Of a stretch of 64,000 nucleotides of DNA, positions 29,400-38,264 are shown piece by piece. Position numbers and translations under genes: made by a program. Numbering within the stretch: the stretch's first letter is position 1; each line of letters begins with the position of its first letter. This DNA comes from an uncultured Planctomycetaceae bacterium (GTDB lineage Bacteria > Planctomycetota > Planctomycetia > Planctomycetales > Planctomycetaceae). The notes under the pieces are model-generated. The model searched no databases, had not been told where the DNA came from, and saw nothing but the letters and a program-made list of their open reading frames with translations. The stretch is from the NCBI GenBank assembly GCA_963813715.1, contig CAWFAK010000005.1, positions 1,248,001 to 1,312,000 on the forward strand. The letters are read 5' to 3'.

Positions 29400-29430
29400 T
29401 GCGCGGCGGCGTGAAGGACGTTTGAAGACG

Positions 29431-30609
29431 ATGAGCCGGCGCGTGGTCTTGGCGATGAGCGGCGGCGTGGACAGCTCCGCGGCCGCCGTCCTCTTGAAGC
29501 GACAGGGTTACGACGTCGTCGGTCTCTTCATGCGGTCGGGCGCGACCGAAGAGGCGGTTTGCGCGACAACCGATCGGGGCGTGGCCTGCGCCACGACGAG
29601 CGGTTCCTCGCTGCCGATCATTTCGGGGCCATTGCCCTCGGCGGAGACAACGCCCGCCCCGCAGCGAGCCTCGCACAAACAGGGCTGCTGCAGCGCGTCG
29701 GACGCGGCTGACGCCCGTCGCGTGGCCGACCTGCTCGATCTGCCGTTTTACGCGCTCAACTTTCAGGACGCGTTTGGCCGTATCAAGGACTACTTCGCGG
29801 ACGAATACCTGAGCGGCCGCACGCCCAACCCCTGCGTGATGTGCAACAACTGGCTCAAGTTCGGCAAGCTGTGGGAGTTTGCCCAGCAGGTCGATGCCGA
29901 GGCCATCGCGACCGGACACTACGCCCAACTGCGCGACGTTGATGGGGACGACCGGCCGGCTCTCGTCCGCGGGAGCCGACGTTTCCAAGGATCAGTCCTA
30001 CGTCCTCTTTGGCATCGCGCGGGAGCTGCTCGATCGGATTATTTTTCCCGTCGGCGGTTTCGAGAAGCCGGCGATCCGCGAGCTGGCCCGCGAGGCCGGC
30101 CTGCGCGTCGCCGACAAACCCGATAGCCAGGAAATCTGTTTCATTCCCGACAACGACTACGCCGGCTTTATCCGCAAGTATCGTGGAATCGACGACGACC
30201 TGTCGGGCGAGTTTGTCGACAGGGCCGGCGCGGTTCTCGGCCGGCACGACGGCTGTCATCACTTCACCATCGGCCAAAGGCGCGGCCTGGGAATTGCCTT
30301 CGGATCGCCCCGCTTCGTGGTCGCGATCGAACCGGCGACGCGCCGCGTCGTTCTGGGGACGCACGACGAGTTGGCCCGGCACGAGCTGGACGCCGATCGG
30401 ACGAATTGGCTCGATTCCGCAGGTTCCGACCAGTTTTCGTTGCCACGCCCAAATCCGCTACCGCCATGACGCGGCCGGCGCTGAAGTCACGTGTCGAGGG
30501 GGACCGAATTCACGTCCGCTTCGACGAGCCGCAATTCGGCGTCACCCCCGGCCAGGCCGTCGTGCTCTACGACGGCGACCGCGTGCTGGGCGGCGGCTGG
30601 ATTCGCTGA
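29431..30609 (+). CDS. mnmA: tRNA 2-thiouridylase MnmA (frameshifts)
   Basis: [54 protein letters not shown]. Confidence 0.95.
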
Positions 30610-30755: not shown

Positions 30756-33413
30756 ATGGCCGAGCTCGAATTTCCGGCCGACGCCGGCAGCCGGCCAGCG
30801 GGCCGGCACAGGCTTGGGCCGCGCCCCTGGTTGATCGCGCTTTCTTGCGCAGCGGCCGCAGTCGCCGCATACACCGCATGGGGCAAGCATCGCGCCCGCC
30901 GGCTTTCGGACTTGAACGAGGAACTCGGGCAATCCTCCGGTTACGAGTTTCACGCCTCGGACACGGGCGTGACGTGTCGCGGGATTGCGATTAGTGACGA
31001 ACTTGCCCAGAGCATTGCCTCCGTGCCGACGATCTCTTCGCTCGATTTCACCGCGTGCCGCATTTCCAAGGATGCGCTGGAATCAATCACCTCCCTCCCC
31101 AACCTCAGCTATCTCAATCTGGTTGATTGCCGGTTCACTGGACCCGGAAAAGTCCGCTTCGGCAGCTCGCAATCCTTGGCGCGCGTCACGCTGAAAACAA
31201 CGAAACTCTCGGAGTCGAATCTCGCCGAATTCTTGTCGGAGCAATCGCATCTGGAAACGCTGAAGCTCGAGGATACGGGGATCACCGACGGCGACCTCAA
31301 GGGCTGGACGGCGTCTACGGAACTGAGCAACGCCTTCTTCCGGGAATCCGGCCTCACTGCATCCGGGCTGGCGGGATTGATGCGTTGTCAGTCGCTCACG
31401 ACGCTCTCGGTTACCGGCTCAGGCATTGACGACGATGGACTGGCGGTCATCGCGCGGCTGGGCTCGCTCTCGAGCCTTGATCTTTCCAATTGTGGCGCGC
31501 TCGATGGGAGCGGCCTTGCGCATCTCGCGCCGCTGGCTAACCTCGCGAGTCTCGACCTCAGCAGCACCCTGGTGACCGATCGTGGTCTGCAAAATCTGGT
31601 CAACGGATTCCCGGCGTTGTCTCGTGTGCGACTGCGAAATTGCGACAGGATCACGGATGCCGCCATGGAATCGCTGGCCCGGTTACCGCGGCTCACGTTG
31701 CTGGATTTGACTCACACGAACGTGACCGGGCGGGGATTGAAGTTTTTGAGCGGTCACGGCTCGCTGCGCGTGCTGGAGCTCAGCATAACGAAATTGGACG
31801 ATCCGGGCCTATCGGCCCTGGGGGCGCTGCCCGCGCTCACCTCGCTCGACCTTTCGAACACTCGAATCGCCGGGGGGTCGCTCGCCCGTTTGCAGAACTG
31901 TCCGCGATTGGAGATCCTTTCGATCGCCGGGTGCGCCGTTTCGCAACGCGCGGTCCAGAGCCTTCGCTCGGCCGCTCCCGCGCTCCGCTCCCTCGACTGC
32001 TCCGGATGCGCCTCAATCGACGACGAGACAATCGAGGTCTTGCGCGGCCTGGCCCACCTCCAAGCCATCGAGTGTCAAGGCACGCGAGTCTTCGATTCGT
32101 GGAACGGACGTGCGGGTCCGCGAGTCGAGGGCGGCTCAAATGGGGTGGTGACCGCGCTTACGAACGCGGAGATTGACGAAGCGGCCGCTCTCGACTTGAG
32201 TGCCGGCGGAATGCTGCGCAGGCTGACTCTCAGTCATTGCCGGCTGTCGTCGAAGGCTCTCCAGATCGCGACGAGTTCGCCGGCGCTGAGAGTCCTCGTG
32301 CTGGACGGCTGCACGATCCTCGAGAACAATGCCGGACAACTGGGCAGTCTGGAGCGACTCGAATCGTTGACAATCCGCGACACGGCCTTCGACGCAGCCG
32401 ATCTCGCGCGAGTCTGTGGCGGCCATCGGCTTTTTCACCTGGCGCTGGGCGGGTCTGCCGTCTTGGCGCTAACTGGATGGCCCGGGGCGCCTGCCGCGCA
32501 AAACATCGATCTGCAGGGAGCGCGTTTCGGTGGGGATGCCCTCCCCGGCCTTCAGAGATGCACGGCGCTTGAAAGTCTCGATCTGAGCAACAGCGACGCG
32601 GCGGACGCGGTGCTCCAGAACATTCAGCGGCTTGATAAGCTGGCAACGCTCAACCTCCCTCGTTGCAAGCACGTGACGGATCGCGGACTCGCCTACCTCG
32701 CGAAACTTCCCCAGCTACGGTCGTTGAGTCTGAGCGGAACGAGCATCACCGATCCTGGGCTCGAGGCGCTGTCGCGGCTTCCCTCACTTACCACTTTAGA
32801 TCTGTCGGTGACGAGCCTGGATGGGCACGGGTTGATTTATTTCAAGCAGTGCAAGAACTTGAGAGATGTGAACCTCGCCGGGACGAAGCTTACCGACGAA
32901 TCGATCGCCGCCGCGGGGTTTCCGCCCTTGCTTTCGAGCCTGTCCGTTGCCAAGACCTCCCTTCATGGCTCCGGTCTTGCGAGTCTGACGAACGTGAAAG
33001 GACTGCAAACTTTTGACGCGAGTGGATCGGACCTCGACGACGATGGCCTGCAAGCAATTGCCGCGATTCCAACCCTCGCGAGCTTGGATGTCTCGCATTG
33101 CGCCAGGATCACCGATGCGGGCGTGCGGCGAATCGCAAAGATGTCCCGCCTGCGGTCTCTCAACTTGTGCGGGACGCAAACGAGCGATGTGGCTCTCGAG
33201 GCAATTGCGGCGATGCCAGCTCTCGGGACACTCAATTTGCGGGAGACGCGGGTGACTGCACGGGGCGTTCAGCAACTCTCGTCGTGTCCTTTCCTCAACA
33301 ACCTCGAGGCTGACGAAACAGTCCGACCTCGGTCCGTGCTGCTTGACATCACGCGGCGGCGGAGTGCAACCAGGAGTGCCCTGCAGAGCGACAGGATCGG
33401 ACAGGCAAAATAA
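30756..33413 (+). CDS. Leucine-rich repeat protein with N-terminal TM
   Basis: Many ~24-aa LxxLxLxxTxITDxGLxxL repeats. Confidence 0.92.
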   Translation: MAELEFPADAGSRPAGRHRLGPRPWLIALSCAAAAVAAYTAWGKHRARRLSDLNEELGQSSGYEFHASDTGVTCRGIAISDELAQSIASVPTISSLDFTACRISKDALESITSLPNLSYLNLVDCRFTGPGKVRFGSSQSLARVTLKTTKLSESNLAEFLSEQSHLETLKLEDTGITDGDLKGWTASTELSNAFFRESGLTASGLAGLMRCQSLTTLSVTGSGIDDDGLAVIARLGSLSSLDLSNCGALDGSGLAHLAPLANLASLDLSSTLVTDRGLQNLVNGFPALSRVRLRNCDRITDAAMESLARLPRLTLLDLTHTNVTGRGLKFLSGHGSLRVLELSITKLDDPGLSALGALPALTSLDLSNTRIAGGSLARLQNCPRLEILSIAGCAVSQRAVQSLRSAAPALRSLDCSGCASIDDETIEVLRGLAHLQAIECQGTRVFDSWNGRAGPRVEGGSNGVVTALTNAEIDEAAALDLSAGGMLRRLTLSHCRLSSKALQIATSSPALRVLVLDGCTILENNAGQLGSLERLESLTIRDTAFDAADLARVCGGHRLFHLALGGSAVLALTGWPGAPAAQNIDLQGARFGGDALPGLQRCTALESLDLSNSDAADAVLQNIQRLDKLATLNLPRCKHVTDRGLAYLAKLPQLRSLSLSGTSITDPGLEALSRLPSLTTLDLSVTSLDGHGLIYFKQCKNLRDVNLAGTKLTDESIAAAGFPPLLSSLSVAKTSLHGSGLASLTNVKGLQTFDASGSDLDDDGLQAIAAIPTLASLDVSHCARITDAGVRRIAKMSRLRSLNLCGTQTSDVALEAIAAMPALGTLNLRETRVTARGVQQLSSCPFLNNLEADETVRPRSVLLDITRRRSATRSALQSDRIGQAK

Positions 33414-34674: not shown

Positions 34675-35679
34675 ATGACAACTCCGCTCTGCCGGCGATT
34701 GGATCGCGACGCGCCGCTGCCGATGTTCGTGGCGTCGGTTTGCATGCTCTTGCTGCTGGCCGGCGAGATCCATTTTTCGCACGGCAAGATGTTCGGGCAC
34801 TTGCTCTTTGCCTGCCACATCGGTCTGGCGGTCGTCTGGCCGGTGTTCGTGCTCGAAGCCCTGTTATGCGCCATGGCTGGCAATCCGCGCTGGAAACGAC
34901 GCTTGGCTTGCTGTCTCTGCCCTCCGCTGCGGTTGGGAGCGCGCGACGCGTGCACCGGTGAGCGCGTCTGGCTGCCAAGGGTGGGGTGGGTGGTCGCCGA
35001 CCGCGATTTGGAAGACCGGCTGGAGCGAGCGCTCAATCTGCCAATGATTCTGATCGCGCTGTGCGTGGTTCCGCTCCTGGCCTTGGACTATTACCAGCCC
35101 GAACATCATCCACTCCTGCACCATCTGCACGACGCGGTCGCCACAGCGTCGGCTGCACCGGCCGCGCCGCCGGCCCCCCCGCCATCGCTCCCTCCGGCTC
35201 TCAGGGCGAGGCTCGCCCCCGTGCTGGCTTCGGCGCAACTGCCGTCGGTGCGTTTTGCGACCCGCATCGGCGAAGCACTGATCTGGACGGCGTTCGCGCT
35301 CGAATTCCTGGTGATGATCGCCGTCGTCGAGCGGAAGCTGAAATATTGCTTGAAGCACTGGATCGACATCCTGGTGATCGTGTTGCCGCTGGTCGCATTC
35401 CTGCGTTCTTTGCGACTGGCTCGCCTCGCACGGCTCAACCAGATCGGCAAGTTCACACGTTTGTACCGGCTGCGAGGATCGGTTGTGCGAGCGCAGAAGG
35501 GGCTGGTGGTGGCCTCGGTCATCGAACGCAAAGTCTTTCGCAATCCGCGAAAGCAGCTCGCCAAACTGCAGGACATGTTGGCGGAGAAGGAACGGGAGAC
35601 CACCTTGCTCCGCGAACAGATCCGCCAGTTGCAGCTCGAGGTCGAGCGGCACGACGCGGCCAGTCGACGCGTGGCCTGA
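34675..35679 (+). CDS. Ion-transport (voltage-sensor-like) membrane protein without pore domain
   Basis: S2-like IWTAFALEF, S3-like HWIDILVI, S4-like LRSLRLARLARL..KFTRLYRLR; no GYG/P-loop; C-terminal coiled coil. Confidence 0.8.
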   Translation: MTTPLCRRLDRDAPLPMFVASVCMLLLLAGEIHFSHGKMFGHLLFACHIGLAVVWPVFVLEALLCAMAGNPRWKRRLACCLCPPLRLGARDACTGERVWLPRVGWVVADRDLEDRLERALNLPMILIALCVVPLLALDYYQPEHHPLLHHLHDAVATASAAPAAPPAPPPSLPPALRARLAPVLASAQLPSVRFATRIGEALIWTAFALEFLVMIAVVERKLKYCLKHWIDILVIVLPLVAFLRSLRLARLARLNQIGKFTRLYRLRGSVVRAQKGLVVASVIERKVFRNPRKQLAKLQDMLAEKERETTLLREQIRQLQLEVERHDAASRRVA

Positions 35680-35706: not shown

Positions 35707-36543
35707 TCAATCGTGATTGCTCGACTGCGCCACGCGTTTGAGGAATCGGGTCGAGCCCAGGCGGATCAGCGATCCCCCGAGCGTCGGGAACAGCGCCACA
35801 AACGCGCTCATCGGTCGCATCGGCGGCCAGTTCACGATCAGCTCGGCCTTGTCGTGCTCGATGGCTCGGATAACCGCCTCGGCCACGCGGTCGACCGTCG
35901 TCGAGCCGATGATGAACGGCGCACCGCGCCCCGATTGCTCGCGCATCCGGTCGTAGATTCCACCCTGCTCGGTAAAACCCGGGCAGATCGCCGAGGCCGA
36001 GATGCCGCGGCCGCGGTACTCGGCGCGGAGGGCGTGCGTGAAATTAATCAGGCCGGCCTTCGTCGTCCCGTACGCGGCGCCATAAGGAATGCCGAATTTG
36101 CCGGCTGTCGATGCCATGTTCACGATGTGTCCGCGGCCCGCCTTCAGCATGTGCGGAATCACCAGCCGCGTCAGCAACAGGGCCGAGGTGAGATTGACGG
36201 CAATCGTTTCGGCAATGCGGTCCAGCGGCAGCTCTTCGTAGCGATGAAAGGCCTCGACGCCGGCGTTGTTGACGAGCACGTCGATCGTCCCGAACTCGCC
36301 GATCGCTCGGTCGACCAGTGCCTCGAGCTTTTCGCGACGAGACACATCGGTCGGCACCGCCAGTGACTGCACTCCCACGGCGCGTACCGCAGCGGCGGCG
36401 TTTTCCAAGACGTCGGGCCGACGGGCCGCCAAAACAACGTTCGCTCCCGCTTGGGCCAGTCGCCTCGCGACGGCCAGGCCGATGCCGGCCGAGGCGCCGG
36501 TCACCAGTGCCGTGCTTCCACGAAGCTCGATCCGCCGCCCCAT
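35707..36543 (-). CDS. SDR family oxidoreductase
   Basis: VTGASAGIG, NNAG, YGTTK. Confidence 0.93.
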   Translation of the reverse strand: MGRRIELRGSTALVTGASAGIGLAVARRLAQAGANVVLAARRPDVLENAAAAVRAVGVQSLAVPTDVSRREKLEALVDRAIGEFGTIDVLVNNAGVEAFHRYEELPLDRIAETIAVNLTSALLLTRLVIPHMLKAGRGHIVNMASTAGKFGIPYGAAYGTTKAGLINFTHALRAEYRGRGISASAICPGFTEQGGIYDRMREQSGRGAPFIIGSTTVDRVAEAVIRAIEHDKAELIVNWPPMRPMSAFVALFPTLGGSLIRLGSTRFLKRVAQSSNHD

Positions 36544-36672
36544 TGCCGTGACCTCCACACGCGTCTTCACCCCGGTCGAACGTCGCGCACCGGTGATTGA
36601 CCTGACATTCGGTGCAACGGGATAATAGGGCCTCCGTGGCGATCCCGCGACCCGGGGATTCGTGGTGGCCCG

Positions 36673-37404
36673 ATGAGCAATCCCTGGCTGACGCTGGCGA
36701 AAGACGACCCGCAGGCGGTCGCCGCCAAGAAGGCCATCGAAACCGGCGACGTCGCAGGGTTGAATGGCCTGCTTCAACAGAACCCCGACCTGGTCCGCAC
36801 GCGGTTCGGCGGCGAAAGCGGACGAACGCTGCTGCACATCGCCGCCGACTGGCCGGGGCATTTCCCGAACGGGCCGGCAATTGTGGCGGCCATCGTCGCG
36901 GCCGGGGCCGATGTGAATGCTCATTCGATCGCCCTGCACGAGGAAACGCCCCTGCATTGGGCTGCCAGCAGTGACGACGTTGCCGTGCTCGACGCTCTGC
37001 TCGATCATGGGGCTGACATCGAAGCCCAGGGAGCCGTGATTGGCGGCGGCAGCGCGCTCGCGGATGCATGCGCCTTCGGCCAATGGCAGGCGGCCCGTCG
37101 GCTGATTGAGCGGGGAGCCAAGAGCAATCTCTGGCAGTCGGCCACGCTGGGGTTGATGGATCGCGTCTCTGGGGAATTCGTGGGCAATACGCTGCCGCTC
37201 GAGGATATTACGAACGCCTTCTGGTGCGCCTGTCACGGTGGCCAGCGCGAGGCGGCCGAATACCTGCTCGCCCACGGCGCTGATCGAAACTGGATTGGAC
37301 ACGACCAACAGACGCCTCTCGACGCGGCCCGCCGCAGCGAAGCCCACGAACTGGCCGAGTGGTTGGTCACACAGGGTGCGAAATCGGCGACTGAACTCAA
37401 GTGA
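36673..37404 (+). CDS. Ankyrin repeat protein
   Basis: RTLLHIAA, ETPLHWAA, LLDHGADI, TPLDAA. Confidence 0.9.
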   Translation: MSNPWLTLAKDDPQAVAAKKAIETGDVAGLNGLLQQNPDLVRTRFGGESGRTLLHIAADWPGHFPNGPAIVAAIVAAGADVNAHSIALHEETPLHWAASSDDVAVLDALLDHGADIEAQGAVIGGGSALADACAFGQWQAARRLIERGAKSNLWQSATLGLMDRVSGEFVGNTLPLEDITNAFWCACHGGQREAAEYLLAHGADRNWIGHDQQTPLDAARRSEAHELAEWLVTQGAKSATELK

Positions 37405-38264
37405 CCTTTCGCGCACTCACCACGCGCAACAGTCCGGCCGCATCCTTGAGCACCCGCACGTCGGCATAGCTGCCGGCCGCTTCCAACCGTGCCCGCACGG
37501 CATCGGCCTGCTCGGGCGAGATCTCCAACAGCAGCATACCGCCAGGCGTCAGTCGCGAGGCGGCACCGTCGATGATGCGAAACACAATCTCCGTTCCCGA
37601 CGGGCCGGCAAACAAAGCGGTATGCGGTTCATAACGGCGAACATCGTTTTGCAGCGTTTCGCGCTCGTGGTCGGCAATGTACGGCGGATTGCTGGCAATC
37701 ACTTCAAACTGCTCGCCCGGGGGCAGCGGCGCGAACAGGTCGCCCTGCAGGAAGCGAATGCGGTCGGCCACCGCGTGCGTCTGTGCGTTCTCCCGTGCGA
37801 TGGCCAGGGCCGCTTCGCTCAGATCGGTCGCCGTGACTCGGGCTTTCGGCAGATTCACCGCCGCCGCCACGGCGATGCAGCCGGACCCGGTGCCAATGTC
37901 CAGAATGCGGGGGGATTCGAGCGGCTTGGCGGCGTCGATCAGCTCGACGACCAGCGTCTCCGTGTCGGGCCGCGGAATGAGCACATCGGGCGTGACGCGA
38001 AACTCGAGACTGAAGAACTCGCGATGGCCGACCAGAGTAGGCGACCGGTTCGGACTTCGCCCGACGCTTGGCCAGATCGCGCATCACGGCCCGCTGGGCG
38101 TCGGTCAGCGGTTCGTCGAAATGCGTGTAAAGCTCGATGCGGCGGCAGGCGCGGGCGTGGGCCAGGAGAATCTCGGCATCCAGGCGCGGAGTGTCGCTGC
38201 CATGTTGTTTGAAATGGGCAGTGGTCCAGTCCAGAATCCGCCGGACGGTCCACTCTTCGGTCAT
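37397..38264 (-). CDS. prmC: Release factor glutamine methyltransferase (frameshift near 38035)
   Basis: EPVAY, LIPRPDTE, LDIGTGSG, SNPPY; downstream of prfA. Confidence 0.95.

Follow-up and report, generated by a model that had tools for sequence, protein, structure and literature searches.

A pore-less protein family of Planctomycetota with probable homology to the voltage sensors of Kv channels

Gene P0001 is located at 34675..35679 on the plus strand (stop codon included) of a 64,000-nucleotide stretch of DNA from an uncultured Planctomycetaceae bacterium (assembly GCA_963813715.1, contig CAWFAK010000005.1, positions 1,248,001-1,312,000). This whole stretch is called the window below, and nucleotide positions given without a contig refer to it. 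The gene encodes a protein of 334 amino acids that is very probably a homologue of voltage sensors without a pore. The comparison of sequence profiles indicates that residues ~106-280 are genuinely, if distantly, homologous to the S1-S4 voltage-sensor domain (VSD) found in Kv-type channels; they are preceded by what looks like a degenerate second S1-S2 copy and followed by an amphipathic helix and a C-terminal coiled coil. An earlier reading of the letters of this DNA, hereafter the original prediction, had described an intact open reading frame (ORF) with a pore-less, S1-S4-like second half. The frame at 34675..35679(+) is indeed open and encodes 334 amino acids, and the motifs quoted at the time are all present in the order given: PMFVAS (residues 16-21), VWPVFVLEA (54-62), PMILIAL (123-129), IWTAFALEF (203-211), HWIDILVI (228-235), and LRSLRLARLARLNQIGKFTRLYRLR (243-267).

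The homology was assessed by aligning profiles rather than single sequences. The P0001 family was represented by an alignment of 148 members (A2) and by an alignment of the sensor part only, with 70 rows cut from genome loci and built independently of A2 (A4). An alignment of 22 six-transmembrane (6TM) K+ channels carrying the TVGYGD filter, taken from genomes of the same order (A3), was used as positive reference. Using hhalign, A2 aligned with A3 at a probability of 93.8 % (E 1.8e-7, 126 columns), and residues 106-279 of P0001 were placed on Kv positions 5-135, covering pre-S1 through the S4-S5 linker. The comparison of A4 with A3 gave 85.2 % (E 6.1e-6). Scanned singly, 54 of the 148 members matched the Ion_trans family (PF00520) at E <= 0.1, the best of them at 1.1e-5; at E <= 0.005, such matches were obtained with 14 of 52 members, always within profile positions 3-139 of 241, which is the S1-S4 half. 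A search of PDB sequences with A4 returned 11 matches at E <= 10, and all 11 belong to Kv2.1, Kv1.2-2.1, or Kv3.1 sensors; the lowest E was 0.047, and none is significant singly. No Hv1 chain was present among the PDB matches listed at E <= 10. The two hhalign comparisons, together with the 54 Ion_trans matches, place the proposed S1-S4 likeness of the second half beyond chance.

The sensor homology is convincing because the residues match those of Kv channels position by position (all features of P0001 given here are on the plus strand). The pre-S1 helix and S1 (residues 110-139, 35002..35091; hhalign places residues 106-140 on the Kv pre-S1/S1 region) end in the outer acid D138, which pairs with Kv E37 at the outer end of S1. 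S2 (residues 190-217, 35242..35325) contains E200, W204, F207, and E210, and was identified by hhalign and by conservation in the family, as was S3 (residues 226-242, 35350..35400) with D231 and P238. In S2, E200 falls on E54 of Kv, F207 on F61, E210 on E64, and F211 on Y65; in S3, D231 falls on D87. S4 (residues 243-267, 35401..35475; aligned by hhalign, with an uncertain exact register) has basic residues at 244, 247, 250, 253, 259, 262, and 265, and Q256 in between. R244, R247, R250, and R253 pair with R103, R106, R109, and R112, R262 with K118, and R265 with R121. No variation is seen within A3 at E54, F61, E64, Y65, D87, R106, R109, R112, and K118, and very little at E37; R103 and R121 do not appear among the invariant positions listed.

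Conservation within the 148 family members follows much the same residues. F207 and P133 are present in 148/148 members, E210 and W204 in 147/148, and position 138 is acidic in 139/148. Position 200 is mostly threonine (87 T, 18 E). In S3, position 231 is D in 124 members, N in 18, and E in 5, and P238 is found in 148/148. Along S4, arginine was counted at position 244 in 117 of the 148 members (P in 27), at 247 in 124 (plus 1 K), at 250 in 110 (plus 3 K), at 253 in 121 (plus 13 K), at 262 in 129 (plus 10 K), and at 265 in 141 (plus 4 K), while position 259 is R in 77 and K in 53. Each of the seven S4 positions is therefore basic in at least 113/148 members. A possible covariation of the charge pair D231N with R247Q was also considered: the raw counts were 8/17 versus 12/123, but only seven independent pairs were found on the tree, with a sign test p of about 1, and the candidate was rejected.

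The S4 ladder of P0001 runs in steps of three, R244, R247, R250, R253, (Q256), K259, R262, R265. The S4 sequence, LRSLRLARLARL, is without tryptophan; every rung is R, K, or Q, and the ladder is without a small-residue gap. The absence of the RxWRxxR signature of Hv1, pointed out in the original prediction, is borne out by this lack of tryptophan. An acidic residue in the middle of S1 is the selectivity residue of Hv1. The corresponding part of P0001, residues 122-137 (LPMILIALCVVPLLAL), has no acidic or polar residue mid-membrane, the sole acid being D138 at the outer end. The family consensus agrees, with no acidic residue inside the membrane in S1.

S1 and S2 are connected by a periplasmic loop (residues 141-189, 35095..35241; predicted local distance difference test score (pLDDT) 68-76) with a His/Pro/Ala-rich insert. 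Six histidines lie within residues 143-153; within alignment A1, this insert is seen in the nearer relatives only and is absent in the distant members. By analogy with the outer face of Hv1 and TMEM266, the His-rich loop could be a putative metal-binding site.

S4 is followed by ~25 residues forming an amphipathic helix and by one further helix, residues 291-333, and both the absence of S5-pore-S6 and the absence of a GYG filter were correctly foreseen. A second hydrophobic hairpin beyond S4 is likewise lacking. By contrast, the Kv relatives in A3 all show TVGYGD. The amphipathic helix (residues 268-288, 35476..35538) lies partly on the Kv S4-S5 linker: the hhalign alignment extends to residue 279 (Kv 135), and AlphaFold places a helix at 265-287. 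An exhaustive search returned 585 cluster representatives (50 % identity) at E <= 0.001, of which 190 were at E <= 1e-30. The best 150 of the 585 are 122-505 amino acids long, and in nearly all of them the match falls into two segments, about residues 1-150 and 190-325. Among these best 150, homologues with a truncated or complete pore were not seen, and the Pfam matches stop by position 139/241. Three of the eight longest members (400-505 amino acids) match Ion_trans, at positions 9-132, 42-122, and 43-122; none of the eight has a match to the pore half or to Ion_trans_2, and their extra length consists of an N- or C-terminal extension, as in P0159. Fused forms of 586-2000 amino acids were not found either, which is weak evidence. 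Judged from sequence, neither P0001 nor any of the members examined has a pore.

The C-terminal coiled coil (residues 291-333, 35545..35673) was predicted by AlphaFold as a single helix with a pLDDT of 86-95. The heptad a/d positions 295, 298, 302, 309, 312, 316, 319, and 323 are hydrophobic throughout the family, and the d-position 305 is a conserved K/R. The coiled coil of ~40 amino acids that had been proposed at the end of the protein is thus recovered as 43 residues by the AlphaFold helix and the family heptads. Matches of the coiled coil to leucine zippers in PDB are weak (E >= 0.06). A homodimer prediction with two copies, based on A2, gave a score of 0.10 against a mark of 0.42, which weighs neither for nor against dimerisation.

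The N-terminal half had been taken for a degenerate second S1-S2 copy, a view that the family profile upholds. When the A2 columns for residues 1-108 were compared with those for residues 109-290 using hhalign, residues 4-68 aligned with residues 111-217 at 84.9 % (E 6.4e-6, 65 columns, 32 % identity). In this internal repeat, RLDRDAPLPMF pairs with RLERALNLPMI in the pre-S1/S1 region and VWPVFVLEA with IWTAFALEF in S2. The first repeat element is a pre-S1' amphipathic helix with S1' (residues 4-33, 34684..34773; AlphaFold helices 4-12 and 14-33 with pLDDT >90), which repeats residues 111-139. The second is S2' (residues 38-67, 34786..34875; AlphaFold helix 38-67), which aligns with S2 at 190-217 and in which W55, F58, and E61 repeat W204, F207, and E210. 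At position 61, 136 of the 148 members have E and the other 12 have D.

After S2' there is no full S3-S4 but the most conserved stretch of the protein, a cytoplasmic motif consisting of PPLRLGAR and a WLPxxGW β-hairpin (residues 73-107, 34891..34995; AlphaFold and conservation). In the AlphaFold model, it forms helices at 73-81 and 83-88 and strands at 97-100 and 104-107, with a pLDDT of about 96. P83 is conserved in 146 of the 148 members, R86 in 147, W99 in 142, P101 in 145, and W105 in 142. PPLRLGAR resembles the start of S4, FLRSLRLAR, and the motif is probably a remnant of S3'/S4', of which R86 may dock onto E61/F58. Residues 4-68 and the PPLRL...WLPxxGW motif together look like a degenerate "pseudo-sensor". 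In P0138, a family member of 248 amino acids, the N-terminal half is reduced to one hydrophobic helix followed by pre-S1, without S2' or the PPLRL motif, which suggests that the pseudo-sensor is partly dispensable.

The open frame of P0001 is by itself weak proof of a gene, because the G+C content of the region is high (~63-64 %) and the region is crowded with long shadow ORFs, among them an antisense frame of 262 amino acids at 34864-35652. Better evidence comes from full-length homologues, some of them with 60-96 % identity, which range overall from 96 % down to ~32 % and align from residue 1. Metatranscriptome contigs from four runs span the ORF piecewise at 95-99 % identity. They were used for a count of codon positions only, since contigs cannot prove transcription and carry-over of DNA is possible. 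Of 27 listed differences within the ORF between the window and the near-identical contigs of these four RNA libraries (11 more lie beyond the list), 21 are in the third, three in the second, and three in the first codon position, by our count. From its full-length homologues and this bias of differences towards the third position, P0001 can be taken to be a real gene. A scan for promoters and terminators yielded no promoter-like sites; three terminator-like sites were found, compared with 1.3 +/- 1.6 in shuffled sequences, which gives nothing usable.

Structure prediction bears on the proposed sensor fold. The better AlphaFold model was obtained with the 148-row alignment (pLDDT 87.5, predicted template modelling score 0.80); it is confident for residues 1-250, and S1, S2, and S3 are built in it. 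In a structural comparison of the sensor half using VIA, Kv2.1 scored Z 6.6 (115 residues, root-mean-square deviation (rmsd) 3.5) and NavAb/Nav1.7-VS2A Z 6.4 (92 residues aligned), values that are within noise. Foldseek candidates were re-scored for the N-terminal half: its model, residues 1 to ~101, was placed on the whole NavMs sensor with Z 7.6-8.3, rmsd 3.0-3.6 Å, and 87-95 residues, also within noise. The sensors of NavAb, Nav1.7, KCNQ2, SLC9C1, and MlotiK1 scored Z 5.3-6.7 against this half, the SLC9C1 row having Z 6.3 and rmsd 2.8 with 89 residues aligned. In the wide VIA search, the top Z-scores of 7.4-7.9 belonged to unrelated helical proteins and the sensor rows reached 6.4-6.9; in this unbiased search a comparable row for the N-terminal half, that of NaVEh at Z 6.9, sits among such proteins as well, below a top Z of 7.4. 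The evidence from the fold is consistent with a sensor and not decisive, because the sensor rows lie among unrelated helical proteins in the wide search.

A number of observations speak against P0001 being a working voltage sensor of Kv descent. AlphaFold merges residues 229-251 into one helix and gives residues 257-268 a pLDDT <50, so that there is no canonical S3-S4 hairpin; the S3-S4 connection is six residues shorter than in the Kv relatives; and a HMMER alignment with Kv2.1 shifts the register of S4 towards residues 250-267. On these grounds, three registers of S4 are possible. Foldseek, run with both models, returned no match at E <= 0.001, and the VIA Z-scores for sensors lie within the stated noise of helical models. 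At the level of sequence, all PF00520 matches of the family are under the cut-off of 25 bits (the best among the 52 members scanned has 23.4 bits), P0001 alone has no match to Ion_trans at E <= 1, Pfam giving only HR1 at E 0.084, and hhalign probabilities of 85-94 % are good yet not conclusive for helical membrane proteins. No partner or output domain was found. Further searches with P0001 were equally uninformative. A single-sequence phmmer search of PDB gave one chance match (E 1.3), no family was returned by NCBIfam and none by PADLOC, and Pfam is also without a model for the P0001 family. When the profile of the whole protein was searched against PDB, the coiled coil and the helix directly preceding it accounted for every one of the 22 matches obtained at E <= 10, of which the best had E 0.062.

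The distribution of basic residues bears on the topology. Three are present in the N-terminal tail, one in loop 1, 11 in residues 68-122, four in residues 218-228, and 14 in residues 244-286. This distribution favours an S3-S4 hairpin with both termini inside the cell; if S3-S4 were to cross the membrane in a single pass, the basic cluster of residues 244-286 would be outside the cell, against the positive-inside rule.

On balance, we lean towards the view that P0001 is a non-conducting voltage sensor acting on a partner that is not linked to it. It would be a six-helix inner-membrane protein made up of the pseudo-sensor (S1' and S2' with a small cytoplasmic remnant that holds R86), a complete S1-S4 of the Kv/Nav superfamily, an interfacial helix resembling the S4-S5 linker, and a cytoplasmic coiled coil. 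Upon a change in membrane potential, the arginine-rich S4 would slide past the charge-transfer site formed by F207, E210, and D231, as in channels. The linker helix would relay this movement to the coiled coil and the adjoining pseudo-sensor, and the altered conformation or oligomeric state would change the activity of a partner encoded elsewhere. We infer the topology, the movement of S4, the lack of conduction, the oligomerisation through the coiled coil, and the partner. The original prediction had spoken of a stand-alone bacterial voltage sensor; at the level of sequence, the Kv-type S1-S4 homology and the conserved sensor residues support this view, although "stand-alone" has to be qualified, as the sensor is fused to a pseudo-sensor.

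Conduction through the sensor was the second possibility named in the original prediction: P0001 might alternatively conduct ions itself, as a functional analogue of Hv1 in which protons or small cations pass through the sensor, the pseudo-sensor, or the interface between the two bundles under the gating of S4, which we consider improbable. A pore-less sensor with a C-terminal coiled coil is the architecture of Hv1 (PMC13095418, PMC10377628), and the pseudo-sensor, having no full S4, would contain a crevice plugged at most by R86 near E61. The His-rich outer loop of the near relatives is also reminiscent of the Zn2+ sites in Hv1 and TMEM266 (PMC13095418), but distant members are without that loop, and the S4 tryptophan that is "totally conserved" in eukaryotic Hv1 (PMC10377628) is missing. 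A non-conducting sensor is favoured because of this missing tryptophan, because neither S1 of P0001 (residues 122-137) nor that of the family consensus has an acid inside the membrane, and because the S4 ladder, with R, K, or Q on all rungs, has no small-residue gap and no obvious gating-pore gap. A bolder form of the idea, of which we are doubtful, makes the P0001 family the first prokaryotic equivalent of the pore-less sensors of eukaryotes, with an action unlike that of any known sensor. It would combine a live sensor with a crippled duplicate holding one docked arginine (R86 near F58/E61), and the motion of S4 would either open a path for protons or ions via the pseudo-sensor or the interface, or toggle a coiled-coil dimer controlling the gating of an unlinked membrane transporter in trans.

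Two further explanations call the sensor function or the homology itself into question. The S1-S4 part could be a relic that no longer responds to voltage and serves as a structural or scaffold module, as in proteins of the TRP type, with the coiled coil used only for assembly or membrane organisation. In keeping with this, AlphaFold does not put S4 in its canonical position, the turn between S3 and S4 is shorter than usual, neither an output domain nor a conserved partner came to light, and the distribution is patchy, with 14 of 301 genomes across the phylum. From a relic, however, the loss of gating charges and counter-charges would be expected, and the features of a functional sensor have been kept (F207 in 148/148 members, E210 in 147/148, D, E, or N at position 231 in 147/148, besides the seven basic S4 positions), which makes a relic less likely; we give it a small chance. 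That P0001 is no voltage-sensor homologue at all, and that hydrophobic helices and an arginine-rich amphipathic helix have merely converged on a similar composition, is very improbable. The lack of a significant Pfam or PDB match for the single sequence and the inconclusive fold searches would fit convergence. Against it stand the two profile-profile comparisons (E 1.8e-7 and 6.1e-6), which extend from S1 to the S4-S5 linker, the coincidence of functional residues by position, the Ion_trans matches of 54/148 members, and the fact that all 11 weak PDB matches are Kv sensors.

Among the known systems, the S1-S4 of Kv channels (the matching half of PF00520, the A3 channels, and Kv2.1) is the only family with statistical support from sequence. 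P0001 shares with it the outer acid of S1, the E...F..E pattern of S2, the aspartate of S3, the arginine ladder of S4, and a helix resembling the S4-S5 linker. Unlike Kv, it has no S5-P-S6 or selectivity filter, has the S3-S4 connection shortened by six residues, and carries a pseudo-sensor at the N-terminus and a coiled coil at the C-terminus; the identity is ~24-26 % at the profile level. Hv1 (HVCN1) was compared by its described features. It resembles P0001 in having a pore-less sensor and then a C-terminal coiled coil (PMC13095418, PMC10377628), whereas P0001 is bacterial, lacks the S4 tryptophan with RxWRxxR and the mid-S1 aspartate, has an extra N-terminal half, and has its coiled coil set off from S4 by a linker helix of ~25 residues.

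The vertebrate protein TMEM266 (HVRP1) is alike in architecture, consisting of an S1-S4 sensor that is extended by a coiled coil. The protein displaces gating charge and apparently forms no channel, and its function is described as unknown (PMC13095418). It differs from P0001 in being eukaryotic and in having no pseudo-sensor. TMEM266 would be the nearest functional analogy to a non-conducting sensor. In the voltage-sensing phosphatases (Ci-VSP/TPTE) and SLC9C1, the sensor drives an output other than a pore (PMC13095418, PMC10620092, PMC6052114). In these proteins, the phosphatase or exchanger that serves as output domain is part of the same polypeptide, whereas P0001 is without an enzyme or transporter domain.

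According to the excerpted text of a 2023 review, which reports database searches, every known prokaryotic VSD comes with a K+, Na+, or Ca2+ pore (PMC10377628). In the same excerpts, Hv channels are said not to be known in bacteria or archaea, and pore-less sensors to have arisen in an early eukaryote (PMC10377628). A prokaryotic pore-less sensor is not mentioned in the excerpts of two other reviews (PMC13661669, PMC13095418), and no description of such a family was found in the full-text literature, subscription journals being outside its scope. The sensor module is known; what is new is its occurrence in bacteria without a pore and the combination of pseudo-sensor, sensor, and coiled coil. 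If true, the uncoupling of sensor and pore would also have occurred in bacteria, and, with homologues in strains that are in culture, a small protein would be at hand for studying S4-driven output other than through a pore. It would likewise give a means of finding out how bacteria sense the potential across their membrane. The P0001 family may turn membrane voltage into something besides ion flow through a classical pore.

The P0001 family is large, occurs mostly in Planctomycetota, and has one copy per genome. A scan of one genome per species with profile A1 yielded 210 loci with relatives, of which the best 80 were kept; Planctomycetaceae and Pirellulaceae make up most of these 80. Homologues are present in the cultured species Stieleria bergensis, Rubripirellula obstinata, Thalassoglobus neptunius, Roseiconus nitratireducens, and Allorhodopirellula solitaria. 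In the window's own taxonomic family, 28 of 61 genomes contain exactly one copy, and presence tracks genera: it was observed in 10/29 genera, for example in 10/10 genomes of one genus and 5/5 of another. Of the 14 matches in the even sample of 301 genomes from the phylum, 11 are strong, and the three weak ones cover the sensor part of the model only. Among 65 database homologues, nine have been named "voltage-gated potassium channel" automatically, a misleading name because the protein has no pore. Relatives with 29-37 % identity were also found on contigs labelled Gammaproteobacteria, Cyclobacterium sp., Trueperaceae, and Nitrosopumilus sp. (loci L070, L086, L094, L098, and L101), which could reflect transfers out of Planctomycetota or mis-binning.

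P0001 starts 111 bases downstream of a gene for a Gfo/Idh/MocA oxidoreductase and converges on an SDR gene. Its further neighbours in the window encode ankyrin and leucine-rich repeat (LRR) proteins, and prmC, prfA, and rpmE are also present. The statement that no pore gene adjoins P0001 proved correct for the neighbours in the window and for those in the 80 related loci. All ORFs within about 5 kb were clustered in these loci. A conserved operon was rejected as a possibility: besides the gene itself and shadow ORFs, no family of neighbours occurs in more than 10/80 loci. The commonest is SUI1, upstream of the gene in 10/80 loci, and other recurrent families are DUF1501, sulfatase, PQQ propeller, and PSD1. 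No channel was found among the 15 recurring neighbour families that were annotated in the 80 loci.

The window's own genome is 82.6 % complete; a full-length 6TM channel matching PF00520 was not obtained in it, the only hit being a TVGYGD channel that has no arginine-rich S4. Two K+ channel-like genes are the only pore-type genes found in it. One has a TVGYGD filter (PF07885) and multi-helix N-terminal parts without an arginine-rich S4 (G000:C6:48369-49088 (-), corresponding to L001:1480-2199); the other (G000:C7:619652-620275 (+)) is known only as a weaker match to the first, at E 5.2e-16. A partnership of P0001 with the sensor-less K+ channel P0209 was tried and rejected, as 10 of 60 related genomes contain both, 17 the sensor only, 10 the channel only, and 23 neither, with nine expected to have both. 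A dependence on a 6TM channel was likewise rejected: among the 27 related genomes with a family member, seven are without a PF00520 match at E <= 1e-10.

Some other genes of the window deserve a remark. The tRNA 2-thiouridylase gene mnmA (29422-30609 (+)) is split over three reading frames, with PF03054 positions 40-143 in ORF 29422-30126, positions 142-201 and PF20259 in 29879-30469, and PF20258 in 30406-30609. The two frameshifts reflect either a pseudogene or assembly errors of the indel type. The ORF of 569 amino acids at 35707-37416 (-) is over-long: the SDR oxidoreductase occupies the C-terminal 287 residues only (35707-36570), and the 5' part overlaps the ankyrin-repeat gene 36673-37404(+). 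A protein of 885 amino acids, encoded at 30756-33413 (+), consists almost entirely of leucine-rich repeats (LRR_6, LRR_4, and LRR_8) and has an N-terminal hydrophobic segment.

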